Assembly (NCBI GenBank): GCA_963705915.1
Contig: OY970126.1
Location: forward strand, 515,552-579,551
Source of the DNA: an uncultured bacterium
Lineage (GTDB): Bacteria > Patescibacteriota > Minisyncoccia > UBA6257 > 2-01-FULL-56-20
Direction: 5' to 3'
Length of the DNA stretch: 64,000 nucleotides
The translations under genes were made by a program, and so were the position numbers. Under the pieces are notes generated by a model. That model ran no database searches. It was not told the origin of the DNA and was given only the letters and a program-made list of their open reading frames with translations. Below are positions 2,494-26,998 of this stretch, piece by piece. Position 1 is the first letter of the stretch. Every line of letters starts with the position of its first letter.

Positions 2494-4407
2494 TCAGTCA
2501 ATCACCCCTCGCACGCGCCGGATGCCGGCCGCAACGGCTTCTTCTTTCGCCAGTGTAAAGCGCCCAATCTCGCCGGTGTGCGAAACGTGCGGACCGCCGC
2601 AGAATTCTATGGAGAATGCATGCGTAAATTTTGGATTGTCCTGGGTTGCGTCCTTGGGGCCAATCGAATACACCGAAACGCGATCAGGATATTTCTGGCC
2701 AAACTCGTGTTCGGCGCCAAGACCCTCCGCTTCTTCGCGCGCCATCTCGGTCCGGATCACCGGCAGGTCTTCGCCAATCTTTTTATTCACAATATCCTCA
2801 ACTTCTTTCTTTTGCTCATCGGTCATCTTTACATCGTACGAAAAATCGAGGCGCAACCGCTCGCTCGTGATATTACTGCCGCGCTGTTTCACCTGCGGGC
2901 CGAGCACCATCTGAAGCGCTTTTAATAAAAGATGATGAGCCGTATGTAATCGCACCGTTTTTTCTGAAGTATCAGCCAAACCACCTTTGAATGTGCCTGC
3001 GGAGGATGTGCGGGAGAGTTCGCTGTGCTTCTCCATCTCACGACGAAATGCTTCCCTATCAATTTTTATACCCTTTCCCTCGGCAATCTCTTCAGTAAGT
3101 TCCCACGGGAATCCATAGGACTGGAGTAAATTGAACGCATCAAGGCCGGTAATCTTGCCGGATTTCATAATCTTCGCGAGCTCTTTGAGCCCCGTGCCAA
3201 TCACTTCATCAAATTTTGCGAGTTCGTCCTCCATCTCTCTGTATAGAGTTGCGGACTCTGAGCTCAAATTTTCATATACCCCAGCATACGAACCTGCCAC
3301 GACGGGAACCAAACTCAAAATTTGCTTCTGATAATCTGATTGCCCGAAAAGGTTCTGCCCGATGAGCGCCGCCCTGCGGAGCAATCGGCGCAAGACATAC
3401 CCGCGCCCCTTGTTGGACGGACGAACACCGTCCGCAATGAGAAATACCGATGCGCGTACGTGATCGAGGATAATCCTCGTCCTTTTTTCTTCTTTCAGCT
3501 GTAGCGTTTCTGCCATCTGCGCAAAAACATCAATATGGAAAACATCCGGATCCCCGTTCGCCGCTGCCGTGATGCGCTCGAGCCCTCCGCCGAAATCAAC
3601 GTTGCGCTGGGCAAGTTTTTCGAATGTGCCGTCGCTCTTCTTTTTATATTCCATAAAAACGGAATTGCCGATTTCAAGGAATCGACCGCAGTCGCAGTTC
3701 GGATGGCAATGCTCACCGAATTTTTTGTCGTGCCGCGGCGAACCCTTTGCATCCATCTCGCCAAAATCGAAGAATACTTCTGAGTCGGGTCCTCCCGGCT
3801 CGCCCGCCGGCATTTTTGAAGGCACGCCCGCGCGACTCCACCAATTCTTTTTTACGTCGTACGAAAAAATCCTGCCGCCTTGCATGCCTTTTTTGCTGCC
3901 GTTTTCTTCTGAATCAAGCTCAACATACTTTGGGTCTCCTCCGTCAACGTCTTGTCCTGCAAAAAGTTTTTTCCAGATTTCCACCGATTCGTGGTCGGCG
4001 GGGATGCCGGTTTCTTTGTCGCCGGCGAAAACCGTCACGTACAATCGCGCAGGATCGAGGCCTGCGCCGTTTTTCTTGTCGGTCAAAAATGCAAAAAACC
4101 ATGGAAGTTGTTCTTGCTTCCAATAATCATTGAGCGACCAATTGCCGAGCATCTCGAAGAATGTGGTGTGGCGATTGTCGCCCACCTCGTCGATATCCTC
4201 GGCGCGAAAGCTTTTTTGCGAGTTTACGAGACGCTTGCCTTCGGGATGACGCTCGCCCAAAAGATAGGTGATGAGCGGCTGCATGCCGCTGCCCGTGAAA
4301 AGGGTCGTCGGATCGTTCTCGGGAACAAGCGACGCCGATGGGACGATAACGTGCCCCCGTTCGACGAAAAATTTTAAGAATCGACTGCGGATTTCTTGGG
4401 AATCCAT
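2494..4407 (-). CDS. alaS: Alanine--tRNA ligase, short form (637 aa) lacking the C-terminal C-Ala/DHHA1 region
   Basis: N-terminus RFLKFFVERGHVIVPSASLVPENDPTTLFTGSGMQP, then HTTFFEMLGNWS. The editing-domain HxxxH motif (TAHHLLLKA) and a C-terminal CGGPHV motif are present. These are class II AlaRS hallmarks. Confidence 0.9.
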   Translation of the reverse strand: MDSQEIRSRFLKFFVERGHVIVPSASLVPENDPTTLFTGSGMQPLITYLLGERHPEGKRLVNSQKSFRAEDIDEVGDNRHTTFFEMLGNWSLNDYWKQEQLPWFFAFLTDKKNGAGLDPARLYVTVFAGDKETGIPADHESVEIWKKLFAGQDVDGGDPKYVELDSEENGSKKGMQGGRIFSYDVKKNWWSRAGVPSKMPAGEPGGPDSEVFFDFGEMDAKGSPRHDKKFGEHCHPNCDCGRFLEIGNSVFMEYKKKSDGTFEKLAQRNVDFGGGLERITAAANGDPDVFHIDVFAQMAETLQLKEEKRTRIILDHVRASVFLIADGVRPSNKGRGYVLRRLLRRAALIGQNLFGQSDYQKQILSLVPVVAGSYAGVYENLSSESATLYREMEDELAKFDEVIGTGLKELAKIMKSGKITGLDAFNLLQSYGFPWELTEEIAEGKGIKIDREAFRREMEKHSELSRTSSAGTFKGGLADTSEKTVRLHTAHHLLLKALQMVLGPQVKQRGSNITSERLRLDFSYDVKMTDEQKKEVEDIVNKKIGEDLPVIRTEMAREEAEGLGAEHEFGQKYPDRVSVYSIGPKDATQDNPKFTHAFSIEFCGGPHVSHTGEIGRFTLAKEEAVAAGIRRVRGVID

Positions 4408-4873: not shown

Positions 4874-5788
4874 ATGCGAAAGCCCGTCATTGTGATCGTC
4901 GGCCCAACGGCAAGCGGGAAAACCGCGCTCTCGATAAAAATTGCGCGCCGGTTTGACGCTGAAATTATTTCCGCCGATTCGCGGCAGGTCTATCGAGGGA
5001 TGGACATCGGCACGGGGAAAATCACGAAGCGAGAAATGCGCGGCGTGCCACACCACATGCTCGACGTCGCTTCGGCGCTCCGGACTTTTAGCGCCGCGGC
5101 ATATCAGAAAAAAGGTAAAAAAATCATTAAAAGTATTTTGGCGAAAGGAAAACTACCGATTGTAGTCGGCGGCACCGGTTTTTATATCGACGCTCTGGTA
5201 TATGACTACGCCTTGCCTTCGGTTAAACCCAATAAGGCGCTCCGGCGAAGACTGGAGAAACAATCGACTGAAAAACTTTTTGACGAACTTACGAAGCGTG
5301 ATCCGCGACGCGCGAAGACCATCGACCGGCGCAACCGTCGGCGCCTTGTGCGCGCGCTCGAGATCGTGCTCTCCACGAAAAAACCCGTGCCGAGCCGCGA
5401 GCAATCACTCACGCGAAAAAGCCCGTACGACGTTTTGAAAATTGGCCTCATGCCGAGTGCAGCGGTACTCAAAAAAAATATTGCCGCTCGGCTCAAAGCG
5501 AGGTTGCGCCAAGGCATGATAAAAGAAGTTGAGCGACTCCATAAAAATGGTGTGAGCTGGCACCGTCTCGACAACTTTGGCCTCGAATATCGCTACGTGA
5601 GCCGCTATCTCCGCGGTATGATCACCCGCACCGAAATGGTTGCAGCCATCGAAAAGGAAAGCTGGCAGTATGCGCGCAGGCAGATGACGTGGTTTAGGAG
5701 GGATCCTTGGGTGCATTGGGTCAAAACCCAACAATCAGCCCTTACCCTGCTCAAGGCGAATATAAAAAGAAAAGAGGCGGACGAATAG
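4874..5788 (+). CDS. miaA: tRNA dimethylallyltransferase
   Basis: P-loop VIVIVGPTASGKTALS, ADSRQVYRGMDIGTGK and HHMLD motifs typical of MiaA. Confidence 0.9.
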   Translation: MRKPVIVIVGPTASGKTALSIKIARRFDAEIISADSRQVYRGMDIGTGKITKREMRGVPHHMLDVASALRTFSAAAYQKKGKKIIKSILAKGKLPIVVGGTGFYIDALVYDYALPSVKPNKALRRRLEKQSTEKLFDELTKRDPRRAKTIDRRNRRRLVRALEIVLSTKKPVPSREQSLTRKSPYDVLKIGLMPSAAVLKKNIAARLKARLRQGMIKEVERLHKNGVSWHRLDNFGLEYRYVSRYLRGMITRTEMVAAIEKESWQYARRQMTWFRRDPWVHWVKTQQSALTLLKANIKRKEADE

Positions 5789-22155: not shown

Positions 22156-22183
22156 TATAGCAACAAAAAAACGGCCCTTTGAT

Positions 22184-22298
22184 GTCGGCACATCCTACGT
22201 TCCCCATCGTCGAAACAATGAGTATCATCGGATTGGAGCGCTTTCACTTCTCTGTTCGGAATGGGAAGAGGTGGGACACGCCCGAATAAAGCACCGAC
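22184..22298 (-). rRNA. rrf: 5S ribosomal RNA
   Basis: Reverse complement reads ...GTGTCCCACCTCTTCCCATTCCGAACAGAGAAGTGAAAGCGC...GATGGGGAACGTAGG..., matching the 5S loop B/C consensus. Terminal helix is gtcggtgc/gtgccgac. Confidence 0.8.
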
Positions 22299-22333
22299 AT
22301 CAAAAGGTCGTTTTTTGTTGTAGAGAAAACAGC

Positions 22334-22691: not shown

Positions 22692-23463
22692 CATATTACT
22701 ATGTGCTCAGACTATATCTTCATCCTTCCGCAAAGCGGTGTCGGACGTCGGCATATTATAGCGATTCAAAAACCGCTATCCGGTCATTCGGTATAGAACC
22801 GAAGACACAAGTCGTTACGGGGTCAAACCAAAAATCGTTTTTAATTCTTCTTTGGATCTTTTCTTTCTTGTAGCATAATTTTCGGATTGAACAATCAATA
22901 TATTATCTATTAATTGTTCTTTGACTGGCGACAAGTCGCAGCCAGCAGACAAAAGTAGTCGAGCTGAACTTATAATAGCTTGTGCCTGTTTCTTTTTAAA
23001 TTTAAGAAATGGCAACAAACTTTCTAAAATGTTCATCACCCGTTTGTGTCCGTTGATTCGCAGCTCCGTCATCCCATCATTTCTCCGATAAATGTATCCT
23101 ATGCCCAAGACTGTCCTGATCCAATGGAGCGGTTGGTCATGCCGGGAATCCTGATAAAAACAGATGGTCAGCATGACCCTTCGTGTTTTTAATCGAGATT
23201 CTGAACGCCGCTTGAGTTGTATCATCAAGCTACCATCTCCGTCCAAGAATCCAGCGATATACGCTAGATCGATTTGAGATTGACTTCCCACGGTATTGCC
23301 CTGTTCTTGTACCATATCTCAATGGTAAGGAATGAGGACCGTAATTCAAGCTGCCTTTAATAAATTTTTAATAAAAATATTAAGGACGCCGAAGTAAGAA
23401 TAGGGTTTCACCGTTATTAGCCGAGTTGGCAATCTGGATTACTCCAGAAAGTAGCAATTTCTT
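22692..23463 (-). mobile_element. Intron (presumed group I) in 23S rRNA at the sarcin-ricin loop region, carrying a LAGLIDADG homing endonuclease ORF
   Basis: Exon sequences GGTCTTAGT | ACGAGAGGACTGG rejoin to the universally conserved AGUACGAGAGGACC. The 772-nt insert ends in G and begins after U. About 270 nt of non-ORF sequence remains for a ribozyme core. Confidence 0.6.
22815..23315 (-). CDS. LAGLIDADG-family homing endonuclease (intron-encoded)
   Basis: LAYIAGFLDGDGSLMIQLK motif. 166 aa, single-motif type. Lies entirely within the 23S insertion. Confidence 0.85.
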   Translation of the reverse strand: MVQEQGNTVGSQSQIDLAYIAGFLDGDGSLMIQLKRRSESRLKTRRVMLTICFYQDSRHDQPLHWIRTVLGIGYIYRRNDGMTELRINGHKRVMNILESLLPFLKFKKKQAQAIISSARLLLSAGCDLSPVKEQLIDNILIVQSENYATRKKRSKEELKTIFGLTP

Positions 23464-23503
23464 ACTAAGACCAACTCCCCTCAAGTGTTAAACGCCTGCA
23501 GCA

Positions 23504-23544
<41 letters not shown>

Positions 23545-24428
23545 ACGTGCCACTTTAATTGGCGAACAGCCAAACGCTTGGGAGCTTCTCCACCCCCGCG
23601 CTGTGGCGAGCCGACATCGAGGTGCCGAGCATTGTCGTCGCTAGGGACGCTCGGACAATACTAGCCTGTTATCCCCGGAGTAGCTTTTATCCGGTGTCTC
23701 CGGCCTTTCTATCAAGAATTTAATGAATCGTAAGAAACAATAAATATAGCCGTCGGGTCACTAACTTCTGCTTTCGCACCTGCTCGACTTGTAGGTCTCG
23801 CAGTCAAGCCAGCTTTTGCGTTTGCACGTCCTGCCCGATTTCCATCCGGGCTAAGCTGACCTTAATAAACTCCTCCGTTACTCTTTTGGAGGAAAACGCC
23901 CCATTTAAACTGCCTACCAAGCACTGTCTCAGTTGGGTTTCCTCTAGGGTCCCCAACCGGTTAGACGTTAAAGTTCTAAAAATGGCTGTTTCATTGTCGG
24001 ATCCACACAACCCGAGAGCTGTGCTTCAAATCCTCACCACTACGCTACGTAGTAGAACTCTAAAATCAATACCAAGCTGCAGTAAAGCTTCCGGGGTCTT
24101 TTCGTCCCGCTGCAGGTATCCCGCGTCTTCACGGGAATCGCATTTTCACCGAGCTTGCCTCTGAGACAGTTCTCCGGTCGTTACGCCTTTCGTGCGCTTC
24201 GGAACTTACCCGAAAAGGAATTGCGCTACCTTAGAACGATTATAGTTATCGCTGACATTGACGAGGGCTTGAGTCAGTGAGCCTCCGTATTGCTACGGCA
24301 CCCCCAACCTTGACCTTCTCGCATCGGTCAGGCGTCACCCCCTATACATCCTCTTGCGAGTTAGCAGGGAGCTGTGTTTTTGGTAAACAGTCGCCAGAGA
24401 GACTTTTGTTGCAGCCCAACACCACTTT

Positions 24429-24737
24429 GATTTCAAGATTAAAGAAAGCTGTTTTTGATCCTTTTATAAAGCTCTTGCTTAGCTCTACCATGACTTTTTA
24501 ATCGTTGTTCTCTGCGAAGAGCGTCCTCAAAACTTCGATACGCTTCAATGTAAACAAATTTCCATTCGCCTACACTTCGTTTAGTAGCAGTTTGAAGACC
24601 ACGATTATGCTCAGATAATCTACGTCGAAGATTTTTTGTATGTCCGATGTAGAACTCTTTTGTCACAGTATTTTGGATGAAGTAAACAGCAAACATTTGC
24701 TCATTTTAATCCTATGCGGATTAAAAATATCTTAAAA
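24429..24737 (-). mobile_element. Compact 309-nt insertion in a 23S variable helix carrying a GIY-YIG ORF (IVS-like or degenerate intron)
   Basis: Flanked by an about 15-bp complementary pair, gcccagcaccactttg and caaagtggtgttgggc. The non-ORF part is only about 50 nt, which is too short for a group I core. Confidence 0.5.
24439..24696 (-). CDS. GIY-YIG nuclease-domain protein (85 aa)
   Basis: VYFIQNTVTKEFYIGHTKNLRRRLSEHN matches the GIY-YIG core (GIY...YIG, R, E, N). Confidence 0.7.
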   Translation of the reverse strand: MFAVYFIQNTVTKEFYIGHTKNLRRRLSEHNRGLQTATKRSVGEWKFVYIEAYRSFEDALRREQRLKSHGRAKQELYKRIKNSFL

Positions 24738-25987
24738 GCAAAGTGGTGCTGGGCAGGCCTTATCGCTAACTTACGGCCGCTTTTTTGCCTAGTTCCTTAG
24801 AGGCAAATCACTCGTTCCCCTTGGGCTACTCGCCCTATCCACCAGTGTCGGTTTACGGTACGGTTCCCATGTTTCATAACAAACACGCTTTTCTCGAAGG
24901 GCTCTTCACGATCATTAGCCAGGTAAATTCCTGACCTTCCGCCTCCGGCCGCTTGAACTTGCCGGTAGCGATATCAAACCAATAAGACACGATCGCTTAT
25001 TTCCCTTGCACGTGCAGGATAAAAACATAGGAGGGCTGGAATATTAACCAGCATTCCATCGACTGCCCCTTTCGGGATTGCCTTAGGACCGCCTAACCCG
25101 TGGTTGATTGCCAGTGCCACGGAAACCTTAGATTTTCGGGGTTCCAATTTCTCATTGGGATTGTGGTTACTCGTTCCGACATTTTCTCTTCCGGACGCTC
25201 CAGTCGCCCTCGCGGGTCGACCTTCACTGCAACCGGAATGCTCTCCTACCAGACGTGTCTCCCGAAGGAAACACGAATTCGTATCTTCGGTGCCGTGCTT
25301 GAGCCCCGATACATTTTCGGCGCCACCACCCGTCGAATAGTGAGTTGTTACACACTCTTTAAAGGATGGCTACCTCTAAGCCAACCTCCTATCTGTCTAT
25401 GGGTGATAACTACCTTTAACACTGAGCACGGACTTGGGGACCTTAGATGACGATCTGGGCTCTTCCCCTCGCGACCATGGAGCTTAGCCCCCACAGTCTG
25501 ACTAGTGAGTTTTTGACTCTCGGTATTCGGAGTTTGATTGATCTGTCGGCCTTTCGGCCTTTACAGATCATCCAGTGCTCTACCCCCAAGAGGAACACTC
25601 ACCGCTAGTCCTAAAACTATTTCGGAGAGAACCAGCTATTACGTAATTCGATTAGCTTTTCACTCCTTACCTCAGCTCATCCGAAGATTTTGAACAATCA
25701 ACCGGTTCGGGCCTCCCTCTCGATTTCTCGAGAGTTCACCCTGGCCAAGGTAAGCTCATCACGCTTCGGGTCTAGACTGTGCCGCCTATAGTTCGCCCTA
25801 TTAAGACTCGCTTTCGCTGCGCCTTCGCGCTATTCGCGCTTAGACAAGCGACACAATATAAGTCGTCGGATCATTCTTCAATAGGCACATTGTCGTTCTC
25901 GTCCGCGGATTGCTCCGCAGCCGTTCGAACTTCAATTCCTTGTAGACAAATGGTTTCAGGTTCTATTTCAACGGCCTCACCGGCCTG

Positions 25988-26024
<37 letters not shown>

Positions 26025-26998
26025 ATCTAGAAAAGTATTTAGCCTTACCAGATAGTACTGGCAAATTCCTTCGAAACTGTTTTACTTCGAAGTACTCAAG
26101 TAGGTAAACTAAGGAGACCAAAAGTTTTCGTCTACGGGGCTATCACCCGCTATGGCACTGGCTTTCCAGCCAGCTTCGACTAACTCATGATTTTTTGACT
26201 CCTCCACCAACCTCATAAATAACACAAGGTACATTGCTATACCCTATGTTATTTAGGAGGAGAGCGTTCATCACTTATAACTCCAAGGTTTGACCTTGCG
26301 ATCAGAACCTTAGTCTGGGCTCTTCCCTTTTCTCTCGCCGATACTCAGGGAATAAACTGTTTGTTCTTTGTTCCTCCGGCTACTGAAATGTTTTACTTCG
26401 CCGGGTACGCTCTTGGATTGCTCCAAGCCATTGAGGTTTACTCAACGAGGTTCCCCCATTCGGAAATTCCCGGATCACAGGTTGCTACGCACCTCCCCGA
26501 GACATATCGCTGCTACGCCGCGTCCTTCATCGCCTTTTCTAGTCTAGGCATCCACCATTCGCCCTTAATGCCAACCATCCCAATGCTGACTTAAATTTAT
26601 TTGCTCTGCCTGCCAAGAGAAATTGCGCGCGTGAAAAGTGCAAAACATCAAGCGCGTGCCTGGTCTCTCTATAATATAGAGCGGCTCCAGACATAAGATG
26701 GCGCAGAGCTACATATAATGACTCCGACTCTACAATTCGGAGTTCGTTCATGGACTATCGAACGAATTATGGAAAATTGCGTTCGACAGGATACCTAAGA
26801 AAAAAATCAGCCGCACATCGCGGCCGCTCTGCCATCATAAAATGGCGGGTTCAGCCGCTTGCTTTGAGAAGATTTTTATTCGTAAGCATCTGTCTTAGGG
26901 ATAAGTATACTCAGCTTGAAAAGGGTGTCAAGCATGATGGAAACAGATCAAAAGTTTCAAAAATAAAACCGCCTGGCGACATTGCTTGTAAAGCTTCG

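Follow-up and report, generated by a model that had tools for sequence, protein, structure and literature searches.

The DNA analysed here, a 64,000-nt stretch of the genome of an uncultured bacterium (contig OY970126.1, referred to as the window), carries on its minus strand a full-length 23S rRNA gene in which the tip of helix 63 is replaced by a cassette consisting of a small GIY-YIG nuclease gene and the terminal inverted repeats that enclose it. The unit found in relatives is the whole cassette, repeats included, and it occurs at many unrelated places, mostly the peripheral helix tips of stable-RNA genes. A 5S rRNA gene lies about 1 kb downstream of the 23S gene (22182-22299), and no 16S rRNA gene was detected by the Rfam scan of the window. 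The host gene and the parts of the cassette, including its open reading frame (ORF), are as follows.

23320-26578, minus strand: 23S rRNA host gene, full length, 3259 nt (Rfam RF02541, 2052.8 bits, model positions 1-2925)
24415-24753, minus strand: inserted cassette, 339 nt, running from CCCAGCACC to GGTGTTGGG, in place of the helix 63 tip
24739-24754, minus strand: 5' terminal inverted repeat, outer 16 nt, GCCCAGCACCACTTTG, of which the first G possibly belongs to the host
24729-24737, minus strand: inward continuation of the 5' arm by 9 nt, TTTTAAGAT, paired to 24431-24439 in the minimum-free-energy fold
24704-24726, minus strand: small hairpin of 9 bp within the 5' untranslated stretch, TTTTAATCC-GCATA-GGATTAAAA, with a similar one in the closest relative (L002)
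24703-24708, minus strand: -10-like hexamer TAAAAT, 6 nt before the ATG, a candidate internal promoter
24439-24696, minus strand, the same as the rRNA: 85-aa GIY-YIG ORF of the UPF0213/Slx1 type (Pfam PF01541)
24431-24439, minus strand: inner 9-nt extension of the 3' arm, ATCTTGAAA, which takes in the last base of the stop codon
24414-24429, minus strand: 3' terminal inverted repeat, outer 16 nt, CAAAGTGGTGTTGGGC

Helix 63 and the limits of the cassette

A cmscan alignment, together with a MAFFT alignment against E. coli rrlH, locates the insertion in the E. coli interval from ~1708 to ~1770, and the helix that an earlier note on this DNA had left to be named by such an alignment is helix 63, the hairpin directly 5' of GACUGUUUA. 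The rRNA alignment is unbroken on either side of the cassette arms, and relatives with an empty site have a hairpin of 6-11 bp here, mostly with a GNRA cap (for example CCTCCACC-GCAA-GGTGTGGGG and CCCTGA-GCAA-TCAGGG); it is this short capped hairpin whose place the cassette has taken. The ends of the cassette were set from these empty sites and by comparing relatives at different host sites, between which homology extends from CCCAGC to GCTGGG.

The two outer 16-mers are complementary with one G.U pair and have 309 nt between them (24430-24738), so that the interruption described in the earlier note stands with its length unchanged and its coordinates shifted by 1-2 nt. The enclosing helix reported there is also present, but it is longer than the 15 bp given: 16 bp are followed by one C.U mismatch and 9 bp more, making a stem of 25 bp. 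For the whole region the folding energy is -113.9 kcal/mol (z = -7.4 relative to shuffled sequences). What does not hold is the assignment of this stem to the ribosome, as a 23S rRNA helix with a gene in its loop, given the 6-11 bp of the empty relatives and the recurrence of the repeats elsewhere. Judged by sequence comparison, the long stem is the element's own pair of terminal inverted repeats and not an rRNA helix, because the same repeat sequence recurs around related ORFs in quite different host genes.

Inside the arms, the non-coding DNA amounts to 42 nt 5' of the ORF and 9 nt 3' of it, 51 nt together; group II introns usually measure more than 600 nt. The earlier conclusion that there is no group I ribozyme here is borne out by the covariance-model check proposed with it: when 24330-24830 was scanned with permissive filters, neither the group I and group II intron models nor any other Rfam family reached E <= 10, and the intron models gave no match over the whole window at gathering score. 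The group I model RF00028 does find introns at other loci examined. A group I or II intron with mis-assigned ends might nevertheless be considered, since group I introns are frequent in the 23S genes from the candidate phyla radiation (CPR) and several related loci have LAGLIDADG ORFs further downstream, but the missing model match, the continuity of the rRNA alignment beside the arms and the ends fixed by empty sites and by copies at other sites leave it a negligible probability, and a mis-delimited intron is refuted as far as covariance models can tell. An assembly artefact was likewise ruled out by related ORFs at the same 23S site in dozens of independent assemblies. In GC content the cassette, at 36.6%, is lower than the remainder of the 23S gene (49.4%) and the whole window (51.9%). 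Further copies of the family or of its arm motifs were not found elsewhere in the window, nor was an RNase III signature.

The GIY-YIG nuclease

The 85-aa GIY-YIG ORF proposed within the insertion is confirmed by Pfam PF01541 (E 2.1e-18, 66.8 bits), the sole family returned by the Pfam scan of the window ORF, in which PF05635 (23S_rRNA_IVP, S23p) gave no match. Residues Y5, Y16, G18, R26, H30, N31 and E63 are invariant in 22 homologues, and the ratio of non-synonymous to synonymous substitution rates (dN/dS) is 0.06-0.18 over eight pairs, with 0.06 for the window ORF against L002; by these sequence measures the protein is intact and under purifying selection. The AlphaFold2 model of the 85-aa protein is a single domain with a pLDDT of 87.7, for which Foldseek returned UPF0213 proteins and the Slx1 nuclease domain as the best matches (TM 0.63-0.70, rmsd 1.6-2.6 A) and I-TevI as a weaker one. 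The matched structures (1zg2, 1ywl, 6seh and 7cq3; TM 0.56-0.70) share 29-35% identity with the window protein, and an hmmsearch against the PDB gave 1zg2 at 9.3e-09, 1ywl at 1e-05 and Slx1 at 1e-3. The likeness to UPF0213 (YhbQ-like) and Slx1 proteins thus covers sequence, fold and the single GIY-YIG domain of ~85-100 aa, whereas the Slx4-type partner and the RING domain of Slx1 have no counterpart here, in a comparison made by sequence and fold only. We know of no UPF0213/Slx1 proteins in hairpin-bounded cassettes.

Searches of NCBIfam, PHROGs and PADLOC gave weak matches to the catalytic core only (TIGR01453, phrog_314 and PADLOC HEase) and no family membership; TIGR01453, the group I intron endonuclease family, scored 26 bits against a cut-off of 56 bits, over the N-terminal 35 residues only. 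No linker or C-terminal DNA-binding module is present in the 85-aa protein. Because it is Slx1/UPF0213-like and without a DNA-binding domain, it is doubtful as a classical homing endonuclease. An exact-sequence look-up returned no identical record of the window protein, and its homologues belong to Parcubacteria-type CPR organisms. A phage-borne family was considered and rejected, as viral contigs give only distant relatives with at most 41% identity.

Relatives of the cassette and their hosts

Relatives were collected by a profile scan with one genome per species, from which the best 80 of 187 were kept as loci, and 90 non-redundant copies were compared. Their common layout is a 5' arm, 10-30 nt of untranslated sequence, the ORF and a 3' arm that runs from the stop codon, a typical 5' arm being CCCAGC(A/C)CCA(C/G)TTTT(T)GGTTTTAA and a typical 3' arm TGA-AACCAAAAAGTGGTGCTGGG. 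The repeats measure 12-26 bp and have conserved outer ends, CCCAGC[A/C]CC ... GG[T/G]GCTGGG, with the 3' end in the window taking the form GGTGYTGGG. A flanking stem with a score of at least 10 is present in 67 of the 90 copies; among these 67 the stop codon marks the exact start of the 3' arm in 46, and the motif CCAGC(A/C)CC is conserved in 43. The sharpness of the ends is best seen in a copy from helix 63 (L010) set beside one from 23S near E. coli 270 (L022), where homology runs exactly from CCCAGC to GCTGGG: the arms are identical at 24/24 positions, the ORFs have ~75% nucleotide identity (dS 1.4) and the host flanks are unrelated.

In these stems, which were located by complementarity search, 99.2% of positions pair when each arm is matched with its partner from the same copy and 50.5% when arms of different copies are mixed. 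Covariation over 37 distinct arm pairs shows compensatory changes at 12 of 14 base pairs, with 95.7% of cells paired and none of 500 shuffles reaching an equal value, while the outer pairs (C-G, C-G, G-C and C-G) are almost invariant. Nearly all stem positions are Watson-Crick (1054/1077), the exceptions including 14 G.U against 5 A.C (p = 0.06). The arms are near-perfectly complementary, are more conserved than the ORF and change less than synonymous sites do. Together, the complementarity and the comparison with synonymous sites suggest that the repeats are constrained as DNA, or are recognised by a protein, beyond what RNA pairing would impose.

The ORF of the window starts in the context TAAAAT-gagcaa-ATG. 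In 49 of the 90 copies a TANNNT hexamer precedes the start codon by 6-7 nt, against ~3 at each other offset, and a Shine-Dalgarno-like motif occurs in only 8 of the 90. A generic promoter scan of the window returned no -35 box or two-hexamer promoter on the ORF strand. The -10-like box is consistent with a possible internal promoter from which a leaderless mRNA would be made.

Queries with rRNA placed 53 of the 80 loci inside or adjoining rRNA genes, with helix 63 itself occupied in 27/80. The other 23S sites, in E. coli numbering, are ~130-157, ~230-330, 540-553 (helix 25), ~1030-1185, ~2400 and ~2765-2831, as well as the 23S leader, and those in 16S rRNA are near helices 6 and 10, at ~1069-1156 and in the trailer. 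RNase P RNA is the host at 5/80 loci. At three of them (L049, L054 and L092) the two flanks read as the parts of RNase P RNA that border helix P3, and the flank of L049 scanned alone matches RNaseP_bact_a at E 3.3e-28; the cassettes of L023 and L059 are in P15-17 and a second one of L059 in P18, as assigned from flanks only. A tRNA lies 3-45 nt from the ORF at 4/80 loci. The ORF is on the host strand in 62/62 stable-RNA loci, and the other 18/80 loci are between protein genes or unplaced, both of the two with gene calls being co-oriented with their neighbours. In total, ~15 different and poorly conserved sites are occupied, in 23S, 16S and RNase P RNA, next to tRNAs, between genes and in pilin genes. 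RNase P RNA genes with a 330-nt cassette are missed by Rfam at gathering score because the cassette splits them, and they match when the flank is scanned alone; such split genes may add to the 'missing' or 'diverged' RNase P RNAs of CPR genomes (PMC8172020).

Beyond the CPR, the family is present in the cultured Deferribacter thermophilus BMA (L079), whose 23S gene contains two hairpin-bounded cassettes, one at helix 25, a classical site of intervening sequences, and the other near E. coli 270:

NZ_JAPNXM010000024.1, 2384-2608 and 2963-3217: cassettes of Deferribacter thermophilus BMA

Other non-CPR hosts are Tindallia (L084, helix 25), Bacillota and other metagenome-assembled genomes, and the non-CPR copies carry Shine-Dalgarno sequences. 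An RNase III homologue is encoded on the same contig as one cassette-bearing 16S gene (L039). At L019, where the cassette lies between protein genes, a 23S_rRNA_IVP (PF05635) gene is found two genes downstream (4933-5367).

The range of sites bears on the suggestion, also made in the earlier note, that this is a homing-endonuclease-like gene, that is, a free-standing gene whose protein would recognise and cut element-free helix 63 DNA and which recombinational repair would then insert as a copy. The GIY-YIG fold is known among homing endonucleases, and the cassette shares with I-TevI and the phage Seg enzymes the catalytic fold, its motifs and the habit of selfish insertion in conserved genes; the weak N-terminal matches listed above, the 27 loci at helix 63 and the nearest relatives that often share a site are in keeping with homing. 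Unlike those systems, the cassette has neither a linker and DNA-binding domain nor a ribozyme host or a single target site, its TIGR01453 score is less than half the cut-off, and UPF0213 and Slx1 are closer to its protein than I-TevI. Moreover, the occupied sites are unrelated and poorly conserved, the organisms mostly have a single rRNA copy and so no intragenomic empty allele, and the authors of the CPR survey discussed below came to the same view (PMC11270868). Homing is therefore an improbable account of this gene.

Site switching is seen among relatives. The closest protein relatives are often at different sites (78% identity between helix 63 and a near-270 copy, 71% between helix 63 and RNase P P3), and nearest relatives often share a site too. 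Where two copies are present in one gene they are only 38-60% identical, which rejects recent intragenic duplication as their source and indicates separate acquisitions. L068, the closest 23S relative in the set (85-97% over aligned blocks), has its copy elsewhere in 23S, at E. coli ~1030-1185, and an unrelated ORF-less insert in helix 63. Distribution is sporadic, both presence and site varying among related 23S genes, and this and the deviant GC content are signs of a horizontal origin. The helix 63 inserts of L022 (~4990-5190) and L068 (~1455-1635) are ORF-less, ~175-190 nt long and have complementary ends of their own of 13-18 bp, unrelated to the CCAGC arms; from such sequences helix 63 seems to be a general hotspot in this clade for insertions of the intervening sequence (IVS) type.

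The repeats also occur without a gene. A metagenome scan for CCAGCACCACTTTT-N(4-34)-AAAAGTGGTGCTGG, the exact arm sequence of the window, gave at least 120 stretches, and 82 hairpins in 80 loci (L101-L180) were examined among the matches listed. Peripheral loops of structured RNAs are among their hosts: such ORF-less hairpins are found in RNase P RNA (L135, L159 and L168), in a thiamine pyrophosphate (TPP) riboswitch (L104, 59.9 bits), in group I introns within 23S (L109/L116 and L164) and in 23S rRNA itself (L119), with nested or tandem hairpins in L108, L127, L132 and L166. Nine hairpin loci have a family ORF within ~100 nt.

In type IV prepilin genes, at least 14 hairpins are located where Gly-Phe-Thr is encoded, with the imperfect direct repeat GG(G/A)TTTAC on their flanks, and these are out of frame except in fusions. 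At five independent loci (L080 3001-3786, L140, L154, L156 and L157) nuclease and prepilin form one in-frame fusion whose linker is the translated arms, ...PSTT...KSGAG|FTLIELLV. Because the arms translate into this linker, the fused nuclease would be a leader peptide cleaved off by prepilin peptidase. In a protein search at least 17 clusters join PF01541 to PF07963, the prepilin N-terminal family (proteins P0022-P0048), and no description of such a fusion was found in a literature search of incomplete coverage. Two genes for type IV prepilin-like proteins (MKKGFTLIEILIV... and ..SGFTLVEVLV..) also lie in the window itself, at ~49080 and ~46328 of the minus strand, and neither has a hairpin or nuclease insertion.

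These observations also bear on a host nuclease, for example one of repair, domesticated and parked in highly transcribed stable-RNA operons, for which the hairpin would be a processing or stability signal only. Strong purifying selection with invariant catalytic residues and the strict sense orientation would suit it, and proteins of the UPF0213 type are widespread in bacteria. A resident host gene does not readily account for the patchy, site-shifting presence among close relatives such as L068, the deviant GC content, two divergent copies in one gene, the abundance of ORF-less copies or arm sequences conserved more than pairing alone demands, and we regard domestication as having little chance of being correct.

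Processing, spread and earlier work

Insertions in CPR rRNA genes were surveyed by Tsurumaki et al. in 2024 (PMC11270868), who found 30 GIY-YIG ORFs, 15 in 16S and 15 in 23S, all of them in insertions that matched neither intron class and lay at scattered, poorly conserved sites. These ORFs were judged to be outside a homing context, and some non-intron insertions were proposed as intervening sequences of the RNase III type (PMC11270868). GIY-YIG ORFs in such insertions go back to Brown et al. 2015, whose insertions, according to the account of that work in the survey, were removed from transcripts (cited via PMC11270868). The insertion in the window is the same phenomenon, which reduces the novelty implied in the earlier note. 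The text of the survey makes no mention of inverted repeats, palindromes or copies outside rRNA (PMC11270868), and the family described here goes beyond it in defined conserved ends, ORF-less derivatives, non-rRNA hosts and non-CPR bacteria. GIY-YIG genes combined with inverted repeats, RNase P RNA insertions or prepilins were not found as an architecture in the literature, of which coverage was incomplete; the repeat-bounded cassette therefore appears to be undescribed so far, as part of a class, the GIY-YIG insertions of CPR rRNA, that is already published.

In classical IVSs a tetraloop is replaced by an extended stem-loop that has complementary borders and lower GC content and is cut by RNase III (PMC4990558). 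The same paper reports RNase III excision for the IVSs of Salmonella, Leptospira and Coxiella, the last with a decaying ORF, and describes IVS origin and mobility as unclear since 1990 (PMC4990558). The IVS-like architecture recognised in the earlier note is upheld by this comparison, the window having a replaced helix-tip hairpin, complementary borders and lower GC, and the ORF-bearing IVSs of Leptospira, Coxiella and Brucella (S23p, PF05635) resemble it further in an ORF on the rRNA strand and a sporadic distribution. They differ in their protein, a four-helix-bundle S23p in place of a GIY-YIG nuclease, and in their sites, helices 9, 25 or 45 instead of helix 63; the ORF of the window family is clearly selected, in contrast to that of Coxiella. 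Excision by RNase III, established for the classical IVSs, would apply to the window cassette by analogy.

On balance, positions 24415-24753 are best explained as an IVS-type selfish cassette, a nuclease gene with conserved inverted repeats that is probably removed by RNase III. In the pre-rRNA, pairing of the repeats would give a helix of 25 bp that stacks on the helix 63 base, RNase III would cut this helix as it does in classical IVSs, and the RNA of the cassette would be removed, leaving the 23S rRNA as two non-ligated pieces of ~1.83 and 1.09 kb. According to this proposal, excision without religation would make the insertion phenotypically silent. The message for the nuclease would then be either the excised RNA or a leaderless transcript begun at the internal -10 box. 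That the cassettes recur in parts which are either cut out by the host or tolerated by it is in keeping with a selfish element under selection for insertions that stay silent.

Several points weigh against this explanation. Excision, fragmentation and the enzyme responsible are all argued from analogy. The nearly pure Watson-Crick stems would be better accounted for by upkeep of the repeats at the DNA level than by selection on RNA alone, and the search by complementarity biases the pairing statistics towards structure. If the -10 promoter is real, co-orientation with the host is not explicable by reliance on host transcription. Comparison of flanks showed no target-site duplication at the rRNA and RNase P sites, and GIY-YIG enzymes are, to our knowledge, hydrolytic nucleases with no known strand-joining activity. 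Finally, helix 63 carries the large retained expansion segment ES27L in eukaryotes, which makes retention of the insert at this helix sterically conceivable.

Retention is the basis of a different explanation, in which the 25-bp helix and its 300-nt loop are kept on the mature 50S subunit as a counterpart of ES27L and the nuclease is made only from a leaderless transcript. Helix 63 is solvent-exposed, the -10-like box in 49/90 copies would supply such a transcript, and the ORF-less hairpins in RNase P RNA and a riboswitch occupy small functional RNAs that would be broken by cleavage. On the other hand, long perfect helices exceeding 20 bp are canonical substrates of RNase III, and a translatable 258-nt ORF on each ribosome would be odd. 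Classical IVSs of the same anatomy are excised (PMC4990558), and removal from transcripts has been reported for CPR rRNA insertions in the work relayed by the survey. An expansion segment is thus an unlikely explanation, with better prospects than homing or domestication.

How the cassette spreads can be addressed more tentatively. The conserved repeats move with the gene and ORF-less copies with the same ends are present in many places, traits that are those of miniature inverted-repeat transposable elements (MITEs) or of the REP/RAYT system. In REP/RAYT, short palindromic repeats are dispersed in the genome and flank a single associated protein gene; the Correia (nemis) elements of Neisseria give hairpin RNAs that are cut by RNase III, and Rickettsia palindromic elements are tolerated within RNA genes and, in frame, within protein genes. 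The cassette differs from all of these in that its protein is a GIY-YIG nuclease and not an HUH/Y1 transposase, its gene lies inside the loop of the hairpin and it prefers the helix tips of structured RNAs. It encodes no recognised class of transposase (DDE, HUH, or serine or tyrosine recombinase), the GIY-YIG nuclease being its only protein, and we know of no transposition chemistry for GIY-YIG enzymes. It is conceivable, as a reading held with less than even confidence, that the family is a new autonomous class of mobile element in which an Slx1-like nuclease acts on the hairpin or cruciform DNA of its own repeats, with the ORF-less hairpins as non-autonomous members, and which persists where the host removes or tolerates the insert. 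Action of a structure-specific nuclease on its own repeats, for spread or for maintenance, is speculative. The silent niches would comprise RNase III-cleavable rRNA helix tips, RNase P RNA loops, riboswitches, group I introns and the prepilin leader peptide.

If such a class of element exists, it would give a concrete origin to at least part of the bacterial rRNA IVSs. The window is a well-preserved example, with a selected nuclease gene and sharp conserved ends, from a family that has ORF-less derivatives, many independent insertion sites and at least one cultured host. Such properties bring within reach of experiment both the question of IVSs being mobile elements and that of the agent that moves them. 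For non-intron GIY-YIG insertions in CPR rRNA genes, published work has so far given counts only (PMC11270868). In practical terms, such insertions break the detection of RNase P RNA by covariance models and inflate or split the rRNA gene calls of CPR genomes.

The surroundings of the cassette hold further features. A 166-aa LAGLIDADG_1 ORF (22815-23315, minus strand; Pfam E 1.4e-10) begins 5 nt past the 3' end of the 23S gene and takes up, on the rRNA strand, half of the 23S-5S spacer, which at 1 kb is unusual; the group I intron model gave no match around it. In comparison with E. coli, the 23S gene has a 31-nt insertion at 23719-23749, after ~2400, and a 20-nt insertion at 25896-25915, in helix 25 (after ~553). 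A second, ORF-less insertion of ~111 nt is present in domain I at 26194-26304, after E. coli ~281, and forms a hairpin of ~26-30 bp (z = -6.3; core about 26205-26266, minus strand). The class of site to which it belongs holds GIY-YIG cassettes in L015, L022, L043, L052, L070, L079 and L081, and its arms, CTCCTCC.../...GGAGGAG, are similar to the CCCTCC variant of the cassette arms.

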